From: a virus
Taxonomy: Duplodnaviria > Heunggongvirae > Uroviricota > Caudoviricetes
IMG/VR virus record: IMGVR_UViG_2541047807_000007
Direction: 5' to 3' (one strand)
Length of the DNA stretch: 33,905 nucleotides
Position 1 is the stretch's first letter. Each line of letters starts with the position of its first letter. This document shows positions 4,311 to 10,832 of this stretch, piece by piece. Below the pieces are notes generated by a model. It made no database searches, had not been told where the DNA came from, and saw only the letters and a list, made by a program, of their open reading frames with translations. A program made the position numbers and the translations under genes.

Positions 4311-4582
4311 GTATTCGTATTGAAATTGGCGAACGTTATGTCGTTACCAGTGACAGCTTTCAGTTTATTCTCCACGAGAAAAAGAGAGCGGAAAGCGGTA
4401 AAAACGCCGGTCAGGAATGGCTGGCGGTGGTTGGTTATTACCCGAAATTAAGCCAGCTCGTTTCCGGCCTGATGCATCACGATATTCTGACCGGAAGCGC
4501 AAAGTCTTTTGCTGATTTAAACGCGCAGGTTGAGCAACTCAGCAAGCGTTGCTCAGAGGCTTTTGGCTCATATGGCCGTTAA
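4307..4582 (+). CDS. Small early hypothetical protein (91 aa)
   Basis: ATGA overlap with the upstream gene; 11-nt overlap with the A start. Confidence 0.55.
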   Translation: MSIRIEIGERYVVTSDSFQFILHEKKRAESGKNAGQEWLAVVGYYPKLSQLVSGLMHHDILTGSAKSFADLNAQVEQLSKRCSEAFGSYGR

Positions 4583-6848
4583 AGCCTCCGGGCGTTTTGT
4601 CCCTCCGTCAGCATTTGCCGCAGGCACCGGTAAGGCGTTTACCGGTGCTTATGCATGGAACGCGCCACGCGAGGCTGTCGGGCGCGAAAGACCCCTTACA
4701 CGTGACGAGATGCGTCAGGTGCAAGGTGTTTTATCCACGATTAACCGCCTGCCTTACTTTTTGCGCTCGCTGTTTACTTCACGCTATGACTACATCCGGC
4801 GCAATAAAAGCACGGTGCACGGGTTTTATTTCCTCACATCCACTTTTCAGCGTCGTTTATGGCCGCGCATTGAGCGTGTGAATCAGCGCCATGAAATGAA
4901 CACCGACGCGTCGTTGCTGTTTCTGGCAGAGCGTGACCACTATGCGCGCCTGCCGGGAATGAATGACAAGGAGCTGAAAAAGTTTGCCGCCCGTATCTCA
5001 TCGCAGCTTTTCATGATGTATGAGGAACTCAGCGATGCCTGGGTGGATGCGCATGGCGAAAAAGAATCGCTGTTTACGGATGAGGCGCAGGCTCACCTGT
5101 ATGGTCATGTTGCTGGCGCTGCACGTGCTTTCAATATTTCCCCGCTCTACTGGAAAAAATACTGTAAAGGACAGATGACCACGAGGCAGGCATATTCTGC
5201 CATTGCCCGCCTGTTTAACGATGAGTGGTGGACTCATCAGCTTAAAGGCCAGCGTATGCGCTGGCATGAGGCGTTACTGATTGCTGTAGGGGAGGTCAAT
5301 AAAGACCGTTCTCCTTATGCCAGTAAACACGCCATTCGTGATGTGCGTGCACGCCGCCAGGCAAATCTGGAATTTCTTAAATCGTGTGACCTCGAAAACA
5401 GGGAAACCGGCGAGCGCATCGACCTTATCAGTAAGGTGATGGGCAGTATTTCTAATCCTGAAATTCGTCGGATGGAGTTGATGAACACCATTGCCGGTAT
5501 TGAGCGTTACGCCGCCGCAGAGGGCGATGTGGGGATGTTTATCACGCTGACCGCGCCGTCAAAGTATCACCCGACACGTCAGGTCGGAAAAGGCGAAAGT
5601 AAAACCGTCCAGCTTAATCACGGCTGGAATGATGAGGCATTTAATCCAAAGGATGCGCAGCGATATCTCTGCCGTATCTGGAGCCTGATGCGCACGGCAT
5701 TCAAGGATAATGATTTACAGGCCTACGGTTTGCGTGTCGTTGAGCCACACCACGACGGAACGCCGCACTGGCATATGATGCTTTTTTGTAATCCACGCCA
5801 GCGTAACCAGATTATCGAAATCATGCGTCGCTATGCGCTTAAAGAGGATGGCGACGAAAGAGGAGCCGCGCGAAACCGTTTTCAGGCAAAACACCTTAAC
5901 CGGGGCGGTGCTGCGGGGTATATCGCGAAATACATCTCAAAAAACATCGACGGATATGCACTGGATGGTCAGCTCGATAACGATACCGGCAGGCCGCTGA
6001 AAGACACAGCAGCGGCTGTTACCGCATGGGCGTCAACGTGGCGTATCCCGCAATTTAAAACGGTTGGTCTGCCGACAATGGGGGCTTACCGTGAACTACG
6101 CAAATTGCCTCGTGGCGTCAGCATTGCTGATGAGTTTGACGAACGCGTCGAGGCTGCACGCGCCGCCGCAGACAGTGGTGATTTTGCGTTGTATATCAGC
6201 GCGCAGGGTGGGGCAAATGTCCCGCGCGATTGTCAGACTGTCAGGGTTGCCCGTAGCCCGTCGGATGACGTTAACGAGTATGAGGAAGAAGTCGAGAGAG
6301 TGGTCGGCATTTACGCGCCGCATCTCGGCGCGCGTCATATTCATATCACCAGAACCACGGACTGGCGCATTGTTCCGAAAGTTCCTGTCGTTGAGCCTTT
6401 GACTTTAAAAAGCGGCATCGCCGCGCCTCGGAGTCCTGTCAATAACTGTGGAAAGCTCACCGGTGGTGATACTTCGTTACCGGCTCCCACACCTTCTGAA
6501 CACGCCGCAGCAGTGCTTAATCTGGTTGATGACGGTGTTATCGAATGGAACGACACGGAGGTCGTGAGGGCGCTCAGGGGGGCATTAAAACACGACCTGA
6601 GAACACCAAATCGTCAGCAAAGAAACGGAAGCCCGTTAAAACCACATGAAATTGCACCATCGGCCAGACTGACCCGGTCGGAAAGAATGCAAATTACCCG
6701 TATCCGCGTTGACCTTGCTCAGAACGGTATCAGGCCGCAGCGATGGGAGCTTGAGGCGCTGGCGCGTGGCGCGACCGTAAATTATTACGGGAAATCTTTC
6801 AATTATCAGGTCGCTGATGAGTGGCCTGGATTTTTGTTACCCATTTGA
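4572..6848 (+). CDS. A: Replication initiation endonuclease gpA (rolling-circle HUH/Y initiator; 758 aa from first ATG, track ORF starts at a TTG at 4530)
   Basis: HUH metal-binding motif (PHWHMMLF) and catalytic tyrosine motif (GYIAKYISKN); size and position of P2 gpA. Confidence 0.9.
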   Translation: MAVKASGRFVPPSAFAAGTGKAFTGAYAWNAPREAVGRERPLTRDEMRQVQGVLSTINRLPYFLRSLFTSRYDYIRRNKSTVHGFYFLTSTFQRRLWPRIERVNQRHEMNTDASLLFLAERDHYARLPGMNDKELKKFAARISSQLFMMYEELSDAWVDAHGEKESLFTDEAQAHLYGHVAGAARAFNISPLYWKKYCKGQMTTRQAYSAIARLFNDEWWTHQLKGQRMRWHEALLIAVGEVNKDRSPYASKHAIRDVRARRQANLEFLKSCDLENRETGERIDLISKVMGSISNPEIRRMELMNTIAGIERYAAAEGDVGMFITLTAPSKYHPTRQVGKGESKTVQLNHGWNDEAFNPKDAQRYLCRIWSLMRTAFKDNDLQAYGLRVVEPHHDGTPHWHMMLFCNPRQRNQIIEIMRRYALKEDGDERGAARNRFQAKHLNRGGAAGYIAKYISKNIDGYALDGQLDNDTGRPLKDTAAAVTAWASTWRIPQFKTVGLPTMGAYRELRKLPRGVSIADEFDERVEAARAAADSGDFALYISAQGGANVPRDCQTVRVARSPSDDVNEYEEEVERVVGIYAPHLGARHIHITRTTDWRIVPKVPVVEPLTLKSGIAAPRSPVNNCGKLTGGDTSLPAPTPSEHAAAVLNLVDDGVIEWNDTEVVRALRGALKHDLRTPNRQQRNGSPLKPHEIAPSARLTRSERMQITRIRVDLAQNGIRPQRWELEALARGATVNYYGKSFNYQVADEWPGFLLPI

Positions 6849-7107
6849 GTAAAAATGCAGCGTGATTTTATATGCCTTTGAATGGATTATGCGAAGCGCC
6901 TCTAAGGCAGATGAGGAGCAATAGCATGCTGAAGTAGAAGGCTAAATTGTATTGAATCGCTAGCATGTAATTTAAGGCAGCTATTTGATTCGAGTCATAA
7001 AAGAGCATCTATTTCGGCTAATAAAACCATTGCGAGTGACCTTTTGTCGAAGCATAATTCATCTCGAGCGAAGTCTTGCTAGTCTTTCATCGGAATGATG
7101 ACAGGCG

Positions 7108-7139
7108 CAAAAAAACCACCCTGGCAGGTGGTTTTTTTG
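7108..7139. terminator. Bidirectional intrinsic terminator (A7 - ACCACC-CTGGCA-GGTGGT - T7)
   Basis: GC-containing stem flanked by an A-tract upstream and a T-tract downstream, about 260 bp after the A stop. Confidence 0.7.
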
Positions 7140-7836
7140 TTTGAAGCATACTAAAGAATAATACTTACATGGATATTACTGACGTTTACTGACAAACCAC
7201 TTGGACTACCATATGGATAGCCAAAGAGGGCCAGAACGAGAATGCAGTAATAGCACTTCTTCATATCTCCTCCTGTAAGCAGAGGGCAATTTCCGCCGAT
7301 ATATGCGCTTCTGAGGCGGAGTTACTATTTAGCGAAGTCTTGCCCTGAAATAATGCTCTGTTTAAACGCAAAGTGATCTGGCATATCACCGAACAGAGAG
7401 CCTGAACAACACAACATATAGTATGTCGTTGTTTCTGGTTGCATTTTATGTTGTGTAATACTGGTTTTGCATCAAGGATGTTTGAGCTTTTTTTGATATA
7501 GCTCAAAGTAAAAAGCAGGGACTACGGATGATAAGGTATTGAAAGCAATGTAAATTTTTTAAAGTTATTAGTGGCTAAAAAATGCACGGTTTCAATATGG
7601 CGGACTTAAATAAGCAATTAAAAAAGTCATAAATATCACTAAAATCATGGTGTTACGTTTTTTTTGTGGGAGCTGCGGTGACGCTTAAGTTGATTTGTCA
7701 TTAAATAAGCCGTGCATGCAACAAGTGAATGTTTTTGCATGCGTCGGGGATGCCCGTTCCAGCTGCTCGCGGTCAGAGCTGGTGCGGATCCATAGTATCT
7801 ATGCAACTGCATTAAAACCGCCACATGAAGCGGGCG

Positions 7837-7855
7837 GGCGAGGCGGGGAAAGCAC
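7837..7855. other. cos cohesive-end site, 19-nt GGCGAGGCGGGGAAAGCAC
   Basis: Exact match to the P2/P4 cohesive-end sequence as I recall it, inside a local GC-rich island in otherwise AT-rich DNA, in the expected A...cos...Q interval. Confidence 0.65.
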
Positions 7856-7961
7856 CGCGCGTAAGATAAACAGAAGAGCGAAGGATTATGGTTGAGTATT
7901 TGTGTTTTTGTACATATGATAAAAAGGTGTTTACGCTTAAAAACACATCAAAGGAGATGAT

Positions 7962-9263
7962 ATGGAAAATATAAAGATTGATAAGTTTCTCACTATTCAA
8001 AAAGTTGATATTCCTCTTAAGAAAGTGAATATATTTATTGGGCCTCAGGCACAGGGGAAAAGTGTCATTGCAAAGCTAATAAAATATTTTAAAGATTATC
8101 CTATGGATATACTACGAGCTTCAACAGAGGGTAAAACTAAAAGAGATATATTGAAGGAGCAAAAGAATAAGTTTAGTAAAATTTTCCCTCAGCAGTATTG
8201 GGCTGATGATGAGTTTTTTATTGAGTATAGTAATAAGCACTATTGGGTGCGGATTACTAATCGAAAAAATAGCAAAGGGTCATTGAAAATAGACCTTTCT
8301 GAGAATTTAACGAAGACGATTGCTAAACTTCGTTTGATTGTACGAAAGGATTTAGATGAAAATATTGAGAATTCACTTGCAGAAAGCGTTACGAGAAGAC
8401 GTAAACGCGGAATTGAACATGAATTGCGAGTATGTCTTTCTCTAGGATTGTTTTCAGAACCAGAAACAAAGCTTGAAAGTGTTTTTTATATCCCCGCAGG
8501 GCGCTCTTTTTTTGCTAATTTGCAAAAAAATGTGTTTTCATTTTTATCCAGTAGTATAGAAATTGACTACTTTTTGACAGAGTTTGGTTCTCTGTATGAA
8601 CAAACAAAAAAATTATTTAACCAAGATTACATGATTAGGATGCTTAGGGGGGCTGTGCCTCAACATGTTAATAAACTTGTGGAGGAGTTGATTTGCGGAA
8701 AATATATAACAGAAAAGGGTGAGGATTTTATTCGTCATGCTGCTAAGAAGACGAATCTTAACAACTCGAGCTCAGGGCAGCAAGAAGCGTTACCAATGGC
8801 TTTAATGTTATCCTCATGGCCGTATTTACAGTCTGTGACTAGTAAGAGTTTTATTATTGAGGAGCCGGAGGCTCATCTGTTTCCTTCTGCCCAAGCAAAA
8901 GTTGTATCTTTAATAGCCTCAGCGTATAACCAAGCAGAAAGCTATTGTAGCTATACAATAACAACACATAGTCCATATATTCTAAGTGCCTTCAATAATT
9001 TGATTCAAGCAGGTAATGCATTAAAGTGTATTAAGGGCAAGAATAATACCGATATCGAACGCTTATATAAGCTTGTTCCAGAGTCTCAAATTATTGATTT
9101 TGATGATGTGACAGCTTATATGGTTAATGCTGGGAAAGTGACGGAAATACTGGATTCCGAACTAAATATATTAGATGCGAATGAAATAGATAGGATTTCC
9201 TCTATTTTTTCAGAGACTTTTGATGCATTGATTGATATCGAATATTCGGCTACTGTGAATTAG
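7962..9263 (+). CDS. OLD-like / AAA_21-type ABC ATPase (433 aa), no fused nuclease domain; cargo
   Basis: Walker A GPQAQGKS near the N-terminus, Q-loop-like YIPAGR, ABC signature-like SSGQQ, Walker B FIIEEPEAHLFP, H-loop TTHSP; SD AAGGAG; very AT-rich. Confidence 0.8.
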   Translation: MENIKIDKFLTIQKVDIPLKKVNIFIGPQAQGKSVIAKLIKYFKDYPMDILRASTEGKTKRDILKEQKNKFSKIFPQQYWADDEFFIEYSNKHYWVRITNRKNSKGSLKIDLSENLTKTIAKLRLIVRKDLDENIENSLAESVTRRRKRGIEHELRVCLSLGLFSEPETKLESVFYIPAGRSFFANLQKNVFSFLSSSIEIDYFLTEFGSLYEQTKKLFNQDYMIRMLRGAVPQHVNKLVEELICGKYITEKGEDFIRHAAKKTNLNNSSSGQQEALPMALMLSSWPYLQSVTSKSFIIEEPEAHLFPSAQAKVVSLIASAYNQAESYCSYTITTHSPYILSAFNNLIQAGNALKCIKGKNNTDIERLYKLVPESQIIDFDDVTAYMVNAGKVTEILDSELNILDANEIDRISSIFSETFDALIDIEYSATVN

Positions 9264-9271
9264 GTGATTGA

Positions 9272-9709
9272 ATGTGTAAAAATTGCAAAGGAAAAACAAA
9301 AAATAAAATCATTGTGCTATCTGATAAAGGAACATCAACGCAATTGTCAGTCACAAATGATAATGAGTTGGAAGTTGAGCATAAGTTAATAGATGGTTGC
9401 GCTATTGTTGTTGGAGAGCGGTGTGATCATTATTTGAAGATTTATAACAATCAGGATGTTTCACATCTTTTTGTTGAACTTAAAGGAAGTGATGTTGAAA
9501 AAGCTGTTAAACAGATAGTGACAACTTTAAAGTCAGGTGTGATTAATGTAGGTGCTAAAGAAAAAAAACATGGTGCTATTGTTAGCACTAGGAATCCGCT
9601 AAACTCAACAGAAACCAATAGGTTAAAGAAGAAAATTCTTTTGAGTGACGGAGTGAATTTGCATTTCTATAAAATGAAGGCGCAGCAAAAAATAACTTCT
9701 TTTACATGA
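9272..9709 (+). CDS. Hypothetical 145-aa Cys-containing partner of the ATPase (candidate effector)
   Basis: Starts 8 nt after the ATPase stop with SD AGGTGA; N-terminal CxxC (MCKNCKGK), C43/C51-DH, VELKGSD and LLSDG acidic motifs; same AT-rich composition as the ATPase. Confidence 0.65.
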   Translation: MCKNCKGKTKNKIIVLSDKGTSTQLSVTNDNELEVEHKLIDGCAIVVGERCDHYLKIYNNQDVSHLFVELKGSDVEKAVKQIVTTLKSGVINVGAKEKKHGAIVSTRNPLNSTETNRLKKKILLSDGVNLHFYKMKAQQKITSFT

Positions 9710-9722
9710 AGTGTTCTCTTGT

Positions 9723-9746
9723 ACAGGCATGCATTTGCATGCCTGT
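9723..9746. terminator. Perfect 11-bp-arm palindrome ACAGGCATGCA-TT-TGCATGCCTGT between the cargo operon and Q; likely bidirectional terminator
   Basis: Seen in sequence between convergent genes; T-rich run downstream on the plus strand. Confidence 0.55.
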
Positions 9747-9812
9747 CGTGTAATCTTTTACACTATATTTGTGTTGGTTCTAATCTTGTTATGTGTTTGT
9801 TTCGGTGATGGG

Positions 9813-10832
9813 TCATAATGAATAAGTTCGAAAGCGAAATACATCTTCGCCAACCCAACAGTTAATTTCTTTACATCGCTCTTGGAGGAACGTTAGCTCG
9901 TTGCGTACAAAGACTTGTGCTGCTTTTGTTACATCTCCAAATCCTCCTGTGTTGTTGGGCATCATTCCTATCATTTGGGGAGGCACGCGATGAGCACTCA
10001 TTAGATCTTCAGCACTTGCTTTTTTGATATTAAAAAAATCGTCCTTCGTCGCCACTTCACTGAGCGGGATAATTTTAATGCCGTCGGCTTTCCCCTGTGG
10101 GGCATAGAGAAACAGATTTTTAAAATTGTTGCGGCCTTTCGACTTCACCATGTTTTCGCGAAGCATTTCGATATCGTTGCGGTCCTGCACGGCATCGGTG
10201 ACGTACATGATGTATCCGGCATGTGCGCCGTTTTCGTAATACTTGCGGCGGAACAGCGTGGCCGACTCATTCAGCCAGGCAGAATTAAGGGCGCTGAGAT
10301 ATTCCGGCAGACCGTACAGCTCCTGATTGATATCCGGCTCCAGCAGGTGAAACACGGAGCCGGGCGCGAAAGGTGTCGGCTCGTTAAAGGACGGCACCCA
10401 CCAGTAAACATCCTCTTCCACACCACGGCGGGTATATTTTGCCGGTGAGGTTTCCAGTCTGATGACCTTACCGGTGGTGCTGTAGCGCTTTTCCAGAAAC
10501 GCATTACCGAACACCAGAAAATCCAGCACAAAGCGGCTGAAATCCTGCTGGGAAAGCCACGGATGCGGGATAAATGTCGAGGCCAGAATATTGCGTTTGA
10601 CGTAAATCGGCGAGCTGTGATGCACGGCAGCACGCAGACTTTTTGCCAGGCCGGTAAAGCTGACCGGTGGCTCATACCATCTGCCGTTACTGATGCACTC
10701 GACGTAATCCAGAATGTCACGGCGGTCGAGTACCGGCACCGGCTCACCAAAGGTGAATGCCTCCATTTTCGGGGCGCTGGCGGTCATTTTTTTTGCCGCA
10801 GGTTGCGGTGTTTTCCCTTTTTTCTTACTCAT
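9813..10832 (-). CDS. Q: Portal (capsid) protein gpQ (339 aa)
   Basis: P2 order and size; ATGA overlap with the P stop; first gene inside cos on the leftward late operon. Confidence 0.9.
   Translation of the reverse strand: MSKKKGKTPQPAAKKMTASAPKMEAFTFGEPVPVLDRRDILDYVECISNGRWYEPPVSFTGLAKSLRAAVHHSSPIYVKRNILASTFIPHPWLSQQDFSRFVLDFLVFGNAFLEKRYSTTGKVIRLETSPAKYTRRGVEEDVYWWVPSFNEPTPFAPGSVFHLLEPDINQELYGLPEYLSALNSAWLNESATLFRRKYYENGAHAGYIMYVTDAVQDRNDIEMLRENMVKSKGRNNFKNLFLYAPQGKADGIKIIPLSEVATKDDFFNIKKASAEDLMSAHRVPPQMIGMMPNNTGGFGDVTKAAQVFVRNELTFLQERCKEINCWVGEDVFRFRTYSL

Follow-up and report, generated by a model that had tools for sequence, protein, structure and literature searches.

The DNA considered here is a 33,905-nt viral stretch (IMG/VR record IMGVR_UViG_2541047807_000007), called the window throughout in its whole length, and it represents a P2-like prophage. 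Between its cos site and the portal gene Q it carries a cassette of two adjacent, co-directional genes, the first encoding a 433-aa ATP-binding cassette (ABC) ATPase and the second a 145-aa partner protein, which is our main subject. Most likely, the partner is a very small PD-(D/E)xK nuclease of the restriction-endonuclease type, as judged from residue conservation and structural models that predict such a fold. More broadly, we put at about 0.62 the probability that the pair is an anti-phage cassette, carried as cargo of the P2-like prophage, in which the partner is the PD-(D/E)xK nuclease effector and an OLD/AriA-type ATPase gates it.

The gene pair and its setting

The open reading frame (ORF) of the partner is intact on the plus strand, and all of the motifs ascribed to it in a preliminary description of this DNA are present in its sequence (Table 1). 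It starts 8 nt past the ATPase stop codon, and its Shine-Dalgarno sequence, AGGTGA, overlaps that stop; ATPase and partner are two ORFs parted by a stop codon and 8 nt, not a single polypeptide. GC content is 33-38% across the cassette vs 54-58% in the flanking phage genes, and the cassette is therefore regarded as acquired cargo. Because the cos 19-mer lies upstream of the ATPase gene, the cassette belongs to the cos-Q interval, which measures 1,957 bp here vs 167 bp in P2; in the packaged genome, the cassette would come to lie at the left end. The 19-mer is the same sequence as the cosL and cosR features annotated in NC_001895.

Two candidate transcription signals frame the pair. The promoter listed in Table 1 stays a candidate only, because such sites are no commoner in the region than in shuffled sequence. 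The hairpin beyond the partner gene may, from its sequence and placement, act as a shared terminator of the partner gene and Q; a terminator scan did not call it, there being no T-run immediately after the stem. It stands at roughly the position of the terminator tQ in P2. An Rfam scan over the whole window gave no match.

Table 1. Positions of the cassette and of neighbouring features in the window
Feature	Position	Strand	Basis or remarks
Replication gene A	4530-6848		
P2 cos 19-mer, GGCGAGGCGGGGAAAGCAC	7837-7855	+	Exact single match; 0 expected by chance
Sigma-70-like promoter candidate, TTGAGT-17-TATGAT	7892-7920	+	Consensus scan; ~40 nt 5' of ATPase start
ABC ATPase, OLD/AriA type, 433 aa	7962-9263	+	Pfam, PADLOC, BLASTP vs P2 Old, PDB match
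145-aa partner, predicted minimal PD-(D/E)xK nuclease, PDC-M29B family	9272-9709	+	ORF, family, AF2 models, fold matches
Predicted active-site block	9392-9514	+	Codons D41 9392-9394, C43 9398-9400, C51 9422-9424, D52 9425-9427, E69 9476-9478, K71 9482-9484, Q81 9512-9514
Perfect hairpin, 11-bp stem, 2-nt loop, ACAGGCATGCA/TGCATGCCTGT	9723-9746		Between convergent partner gene and Q
Portal gene Q	9813-10832	-	Terminase and capsid genes beyond

Conservation in the partner family

The partner belongs to a large family of small proteins. A word-indexed search returned 18 relatives only, and an exhaustive profile search returned 2,320 representatives of 50%-identity clusters at E <= 1e-3, of which 972 scored at or below 1e-10. 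Since the best-scoring 150 representatives are all short (102-169 aa), none of these is fused to a full-length ATPase. The PADLOC model PDC-M29B recognizes the partner itself at 1.6e-4 and 112 of 132 family members, the best at 2.1e-13.

Alignments of 132-146 diverse homologues, at a mean identity of ~30%, define the residues under constraint. The columns D41, C51, E69, K71 and Q81 are invariant and D52 is kept in 145/146 homologues; the combination D41/D52/E69/K71/Q81 reads 'DDEKQ' in 145/146. Conservation is at least 90% at C5, N29, C43, L70, G72, A78 and P109, so that past E69 the invariant residues are K71 and Q81 only, accompanied at this lower threshold by L70, G72, A78 and P109. Among the cysteines, C5 is kept in 143/146, C43 in 139/146 and C51 in 146/146, and the Prevotella and Opitutaceae homologues that have lost C43 retain the D..ELK residues. 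Read from these alignments, selection acts on the ELK core and on three of the four cysteines.

The motifs picked out in the preliminary description divide along the same lines. Its N-terminal CxxC exists as C2-x2-C5, but not as a feature of the family, C2 being restricted to the enterobacterial clade. The cluster C43-x7-C51-D52-H53 is likewise real and its cysteines are kept, but its histidine is not, the H53 column being mostly Y, W or F. LLSDG (residues 123-127) is present and poorly conserved, with mostly Y or F in the column of D126. By sequence comparison, the CxxC pairing, the histidine and LLSDG are clade-specific or chance features. The segment VELKGSD (residues 68-74) fared better, for it holds the invariant candidate catalytic residue E69; the motif is E-x-K and not the E-G-x-x-D of Toprim domains to which it had been likened. 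Because E69 is invariant and lies within E-x-K, the earlier reading had found the catalytic glutamate but had assigned it to the wrong motif.

Some unusual family members deserve mention in their own right. The Prevotella homologues are 308-310 aa long (locus L007, 4935-5867; locus L008, 4893-5816) and consist of the conserved nuclease core plus a C-terminal extension of ~160 aa; when scanned against Pfam, the L007 protein gave no match. A 150-aa entry of the representative library, P0048, joins an ATPase N-terminus with Walker A, IGSQASGKSVIAKLLYYFK, directly to a partner portion, VIKIDGCVIKKGKRCDYL...ELKG, that corresponds to the C-terminal two-thirds of the protein, and its sequence suggests that it derives from a cassette by in-frame deletion.

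Predicted fold and active site

The spacing D52-x16-E69-x-K71 matches the PD-(D/E)xK signature, whose residues are invariant along with D41 and Q81, save for the 145/146 figure at D52. An AlphaFold2 (AF2) model built from 132 sequences reached a predicted local distance difference test score (pLDDT) of 94.0 and a predicted template-modelling score (pTM) of 0.89; a second, built from 14 sequences, reached a pLDDT of 85.4, and the two topologies agree. As modelled, the N-terminal part consists of four short strands that run into a long antiparallel hairpin (53-59/62-70), and the rest comprises a helix (75-88) bearing Q81, a strand (98-104), a further helix (113-126) and a C-terminal hairpin. D52 is predicted to open one arm of the long hairpin, and E69 and K71 to close the other. 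In the models, hairpin and helix form the beta-beta-alpha core of a PD-(D/E)xK enzyme, in which the aspartate opens one strand and ExK lies on the following one, and the predicted order of elements fits the alpha-beta-beta-beta-alpha-beta core except at the N-terminal helix, where beta-strands stand.

Comparison of the model with solved structures points the same way. In a Foldseek search of the PDB, BamHI ranked top (probability 0.91-0.97, E = 5e-3), and further neighbours with moderate scores included Mus81, MspJI, EcoT38I, PaqCI, FokI, Cap4 and Can2; on the strength of the model, then, the structural neighbours are overwhelmingly restriction-fold nucleases. No match attained E <= 1e-3 and TM-scores lay at 0.34-0.44, so the partner is not close to any solved structure.

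Profile methods gave fainter signals. Among 132 family members, sub-threshold Pfam matches fell most often on HSDR_N (three members, best 1.3e-4), SduA_C (two, 3.8e-4) and SfsA (two), and once each on RE_TdeIII and PDDEXK_9, all of which we take to be families of the PD-(D/E)xK superfamily. When PDB sequences were searched with hidden Markov models (HMMs) built from the 14- and 132-sequence profiles, no match was significant. The best matches were to a PPR protein at 0.015, which looks spurious, and to the PD-(D/E)xK nuclease Rai1 at a non-significant E = 0.41, in an alignment spanning C-D-Y-L...V-E-L-K...Q; as a lead, the aligned spacing may correspond to that of the catalytic residues D236/E253/K255 of the related enzyme DXO.

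Toprim and zinc-centred alternatives

The preliminary description had instead proposed that the partner is a minimal Toprim-like or zinc-dependent nuclease, the pair being a split OLD-type enzyme. In its first form, the glutamate of VELKGSD and the aspartate of LLSDG would bind the catalytic metals of a minimal Toprim partner. This proposal had sound starting points. The ATPase is truly OLD-family-like; the summed length of 433 + 145 = 578 aa does come close to the 586 aa of P2 Old, as the size argument held; split ATPase-plus-Toprim systems are known in PARIS and HEC-01; and E69 is invariant. Toprim domains, however, carry a glutamate followed by a downstream DxD on a parallel, Rossmann-like sheet. 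In the partner family, no acidic column is conserved after E69 except that of D74 (D in 105/146, acidic in 109/146), and DxD occurs downstream of ExK in 13/146 members, which is the chance level. The invariant K71 and the aspartate that lies upstream of the glutamate, D52, agree instead with ExK, and the predicted hairpin is antiparallel.

Direct comparisons were equally unfavourable to a Toprim fold. There is no Toprim protein among the top Foldseek matches, GajA scoring a probability of 0.03 and a TM-score of 0.18. The family profile aligned by hhalign to full-length P2 Old at 0.4% probability, and the aligned part was the ATPase region of Old. None of 132 members matched the Pfam Toprim domain or DUF4435; a single member matched Toprim_Crpt at 0.0077, a model of a topoisomerase C-terminal repeat, and we took this match as chance. 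The Toprim proposal is already largely refuted and now seems barely tenable. What survives of the split OLD-type pair is its architecture of ATPase plus nuclease and its OLD-type ATPase; the Toprim half does not.

A nuclease centred on cysteines and zinc, HNH-like or of zinc-ribbon type, with the cysteine cluster as the catalytic metal site, would draw on the at least 95% conservation of C5, C43 and C51 in 146 homologues and on the position of C51 directly before D52. Only those three cysteines are conserved, though, C2 and H53 are not, and with no conserved histidine there can be no H-N-H; nor is any other zinc-nuclease signature conserved. C43, moreover, is lost from the Prevotella and Opitutaceae homologues with D..ELK intact, and the modelled fold matches PD-(D/E)xK enzymes, not beta-beta-alpha-Me nucleases. 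We consider catalysis at such a site highly improbable. Compatible with a PD-(D/E)xK assignment, a structural metal or redox site may possibly lie beside the catalytic centre, and C5, C43 and C51 probably lend stability to the small fold or coordinate a structural metal.

The ATPase and related systems

The upstream protein is, on sequence grounds, an OLD/AriA-type ABC ATPase. Pfam finds AAA_15 (4.7e-21) and AAA_21 (5.8e-9), and the motifs are intact: Walker A at G27-S34 (K33), signature at S270-E275, Walker B at F297-E301 (E300/E301) and the H-loop at H336, followed by a family-specific C-terminal domain at about residues 345-427. PADLOC ranks PDC-M29A first (1.9e-31) and AriA second (7.3e-26; a second AriA model, 7.2e-12), ahead of PDC-M56A, PD-T4-4_A, NsnB, ATPase-Toprim, GajA and PtuA. 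BLASTP aligns the protein to P2 Old with E = 3e-7 in the region that takes in the signature, Walker B and the H-loop, and its sole PDB sequence match is the class 2 OLD protein 6p74 (0.006). A type IV toxin-antitoxin reading of the AAA_21 label 'AbiEii toxin' was set aside, since this is a domain name only and no evidence.

Together, partner and ATPase suggest very probably a metal-dependent nuclease that works with an OLD-family ABC ATPase. It is also conceivable that the partner has a degenerate nuclease fold and serves, without catalysis, as an adaptor, sensor or DNA-binding subunit, or that the pair is a toxin-antitoxin-like module with the ATPase as its effector. Degenerate folds lose their catalytic residues, however, and the full invariance of D52, E69, K71 and Q81 at ~30% identity is the signature of a live active site, while Pfam shows no separate effector domain in the ATPase; both versions strike us as quite unlikely.

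As adjacent co-directional genes 8 nt apart that match both PDC-M29A and PDC-M29B, the two form, by sequence, a divergent member of the PADLOC candidate PDC-M29. That system, cassette CAS_00123 (FAM_00005>>FAM_02872) of Payne et al. 2024 (bioRxiv 10.1101/2024.01.29.577857), is one of 145 untested 'phage defence candidates' derived by 'guilt by embedding', and the accessible part of that text gives no phenotype, fold or mechanism for it. The window pair shares its gene order, an ABC ATPase followed by a small protein; the enterobacterial clade to which the window partner belongs is, however, a distant member that scores weakly with the B model. A literature search on PDC-M29, WP_000335230 and WP_000427721 retrieved no paper, and a Nucleic Acids Research 2026 paper on P2/P4 leaves the cassette unmentioned.

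Two experimentally supported systems have the same general design. HEC-02, for which defence has been confirmed experimentally, combines the ABC ATPase HEC-02A with HEC-02B, a NERD-type PD-(D/E)xK protein, and is thus, like the window pair, a two-gene system of ABC ATPase and (here predicted) PD-(D/E)xK nuclease. The window partner is much smaller, however, and has no NERD or HEC-02B match in Pfam or PADLOC, and the window ATPase is best matched by PDC-M29A and AriA, not HEC-02A. PD-T4-4 of E. coli ECOR58, described as 'ATPase, nuclease', was validated against T4 (Vassallo et al. 2022), is classed by Ragucci et al. as a PD-(D/E)xK nuclease with a P-loop nucleoside triphosphatase (NTPase), and is listed among ABC-ATPase systems by Payne et al. 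(10.1101/2024.01.29.577857). It is of similar total size (~2.0 kb vs 1.75 kb for the window cassette), and its ATPase model PD-T4-4_A matches the C-terminal half of the window ATPase (6.5e-17, residues 234-426). PD-T4-4 sits, by contrast, in an element resembling an integrative and conjugative element rather than in the P2 hotspot, and the window partner has no PD-T4-4_B match at E <= 1. Because the partner matches neither B model, the window pair is neither HEC-02 nor PD-T4-4.

On the ATPase side, two Toprim systems are also comparable. PARIS resembles the window pair in its AriA-type ATPase, its two genes and its phage- or satellite-borne location in a cos-proximal hotspot, and it offers a mechanistic template in which an ATPase holds a nuclease until a phage trigger arrives. 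Its effector AriB is a Toprim/DUF4435 protein as against the predicted PD-(D/E)xK fold of the window partner, which has no DUF4435 or AriB match at E <= 1 in Pfam or PADLOC; lacking DUF4435, the window pair is not PARIS. P2 Old, reported to be a tRNase (bioRxiv 10.64898/2026.07.10.737580), shares with the pair the prophage hotspot region, a homologous ATPase core and a similar overall size. Old, however, is one chain where the window pair has two, its nuclease is Toprim where ours is predicted to be PD-(D/E)xK, and its gene lies between gene A and cos where the window cassette lies between cos and Q. With no Toprim domain and no fusion to the ATPase, the window partner is not an OLD nuclease.

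A mobile two-gene module

The 14 loci examined represent E. coli, Serratia, Kosakonia, two Prevotella, Muribaculaceae, Bacteroidales, Opitutaceae and five metagenomic contigs. In every one (14/14) a cognate ATPase gene immediately precedes the partner gene in the same orientation, and the stop codon of the first often overlaps the start codon of the second; where a contig is short, it covers the C-terminal part of the ATPase alone. The surroundings vary. In Serratia the pair stands alone between housekeeping genes, and in Kosakonia it adjoins a RhuM gene and two ORFs that by eye, from their N-termini, resemble transposases of the insertion sequence (IS) family IS3. Some neighbours are defence-like: in Prevotella (L007) the pair has a D12 adenine methyltransferase gene on one side and, on the other, the gene of a second AAA_15 ATPase, of 529 aa, and at locus L016 a CdiA_C gene lies near the homologous pair. 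The pair behaves as a mobile two-gene module.

Within E. coli the module is rare. The 1.86-kb cassette stretch is 99.1-99.9% identical to 10 complete chromosomes, that of E24377A included, where the two genes are annotated as 'AAA family ATPase' and 'hypothetical protein'; the phage genome collection held no near-identical match. These 10 carriers among 5,426 complete E. coli genomes compare with 2,117 that have P2-type cos flanks, and the cassette is therefore dispensable cargo. The larger figure counts genomes with matches to ~60 bp around cos (~7801-7861), at no more than 5 places each, and is a rough measure of the frequency of P2/P4-type cos sites in E. coli.

The interval between genes A and Q is a defence hotspot of P2, and P2-like phages keep defence genes there (PMC9122126; PMC9519451). 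P2 itself has old and tin in the A-cos interval, unlike the cassette described here. In the window, the A-cos interval (6849-7836) is ~990 bp long with ~40% GC, no ORF above 81 aa and no annotation; 101 complete E. coli genomes contain at least 80% of it, as do some Peduovirus genomes, which makes it far commoner than the cassette with its 10, and it gave no Rfam match.

The cos-Q slot of another E. coli strain, BUCT2930 (L014, NZ_CP059723, 5006-6941), holds a different pair, in which a gene for a 442-aa ATPase (AAA_15/21; best PADLOC matches HEC-02A and PD-T4-4_A) overlaps that for a 205-aa protein. The latter has a canonical PD...E-F-K motif ('sPDalf...fiEfKeg'), a weak Pfam match to L_protein_N and no match to a PADLOC model, and the pair looks like another unnamed ATPase-plus-nuclease cassette. 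In E24377A (L001, NC_009801) the P2-like prophage has decayed: its portal gene is truncated, its tail genes are partial and an IS21-like element lies inside the tape-measure gene. The cassette (9063-10810) is intact and 99.9% identical despite this decay, consistent with retention of useful cargo.

These observations bear on whether the cassette might serve the phage, in replication, recombination or the processing of DNA at cos during packaging, or host DNA repair, in place of defence. Its location directly beside cos would suit a phage function, and ABC ATPase-plus-nuclease pairs such as SbcCD, which is among the weak Foldseek matches, repair DNA. A function of this kind is nonetheless very unlikely in our estimation, given the cassette's dispensability and low GC, the occurrence of the pair outside phages (Serratia, Kosakonia), the use of the same slot by a different ATPase-plus-nuclease-like pair and the survival of the cassette in the decayed E24377A prophage. 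The hotspot location, low GC, patchy distribution and defence-like neighbours give contextual support to a role in defence.

Proposed mechanism

We infer the following scheme, in its catalysis, complex formation, regulatory logic, substrate (DNA or RNA) and defence phenotype alike. ATPase and partner would be co-transcribed and translationally coupled. In the partner, D41 and Q81 would assist D52, E69 and K71 in coordinating Mg2+ and hydrolysing phosphodiester bonds, while the N-terminal beta-meander and C5/C43/C51 would stabilize the small fold or hold a structural metal. By analogy with related systems, the ATPase may bind the nuclease, which would thereby stay inactive or untargeted until an infection cue leads the ATPase, through ATP binding or hydrolysis, to license or release it. 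Once active, the nuclease would cleave nucleic acid of the phage or the host, such that the invader is degraded or the infection aborted.

The elements of this scheme are borrowed from precedents of several kinds. A complex of ATPase and nuclease is proposed because complex formation has been reported as universal among 16 nuclease-NTPase systems. Gating by the ATPase is proposed because of the examples of PARIS and Old. In PARIS, a phage anti-restriction protein triggers growth arrest, and the catalytic residues of both the ATPase and the TOPRIM are needed; in Old, the TOPRIM site opens to cleave tRNA once an inactive tetramer is destabilized. The PD-(D/E)xK effectors AbpAB, Hachiman and Shedu, for their part, degrade DNA promiscuously.

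Several findings pull against a PD-(D/E)xK defence nuclease. In the AF2 model, beta-strands occupy the place of the canonical first alpha-helix of the core; hhalign of the family profile against BamHI (1bam_A) gave a probability of 0.2%, that is, nothing; and Pfam, NCBIfam and PHROGs scans of the partner itself yielded noise only, with no model match. At the level of function, PDC-M29 is a predicted candidate, so that the defence role of the cassette is likewise a prediction, and the PD-T4-4 complex showed no activity in vitro on any DNA substrate tried, its authors proposing that a trigger was missing or that the target is RNA. Since the related PD-T4-4 did not act on these DNAs, the substrate of the cassette may not be DNA.

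A more specific proposal takes up this last point. The partner could represent a hitherto undescribed branch of ~140-aa PD-(D/E)xK nucleases marked by three cysteines, whose mode of action would resemble that of AriB or Old and not that of a restriction enzyme: sequestered by the ATPase and released by a phage trigger, it would cut tRNA or other RNA to abort infection, with C5/C43/C51 as a metal or redox switch. We regard this elaboration as unlikely; if true, it would mean that the PARIS/OLD mechanism had evolved convergently on a nuclease fold unrelated to theirs.

Significance

Two-gene systems of ABC ATPase and PD-(D/E)xK nuclease were already known, as was the pair as a PADLOC candidate; new in this analysis are the predicted fold and active-site assignment and the refutation of the Toprim reading. 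As HEC-02 and PD-T4-4 precede the theme and PADLOC already lists the pair, the advance is incremental. It nevertheless reaches across a large unannotated family, of ~2,320 clusters at 50% identity and with no Pfam or NCBIfam model, that is paired with an OLD/AriA-type ABC ATPase in all 14 loci examined. This family gains a predicted fold and a testable centre, D52/E69/K71/Q81. The pair also couples an OLD-type sensor ATPase to a predicted nuclease fold other than Toprim, in the hotspot region that holds old in P2. If the cassette is validated as defence, a compact effector-sensor pair of ~1.75 kb would join the repertoire of P2 cargo in E. coli.

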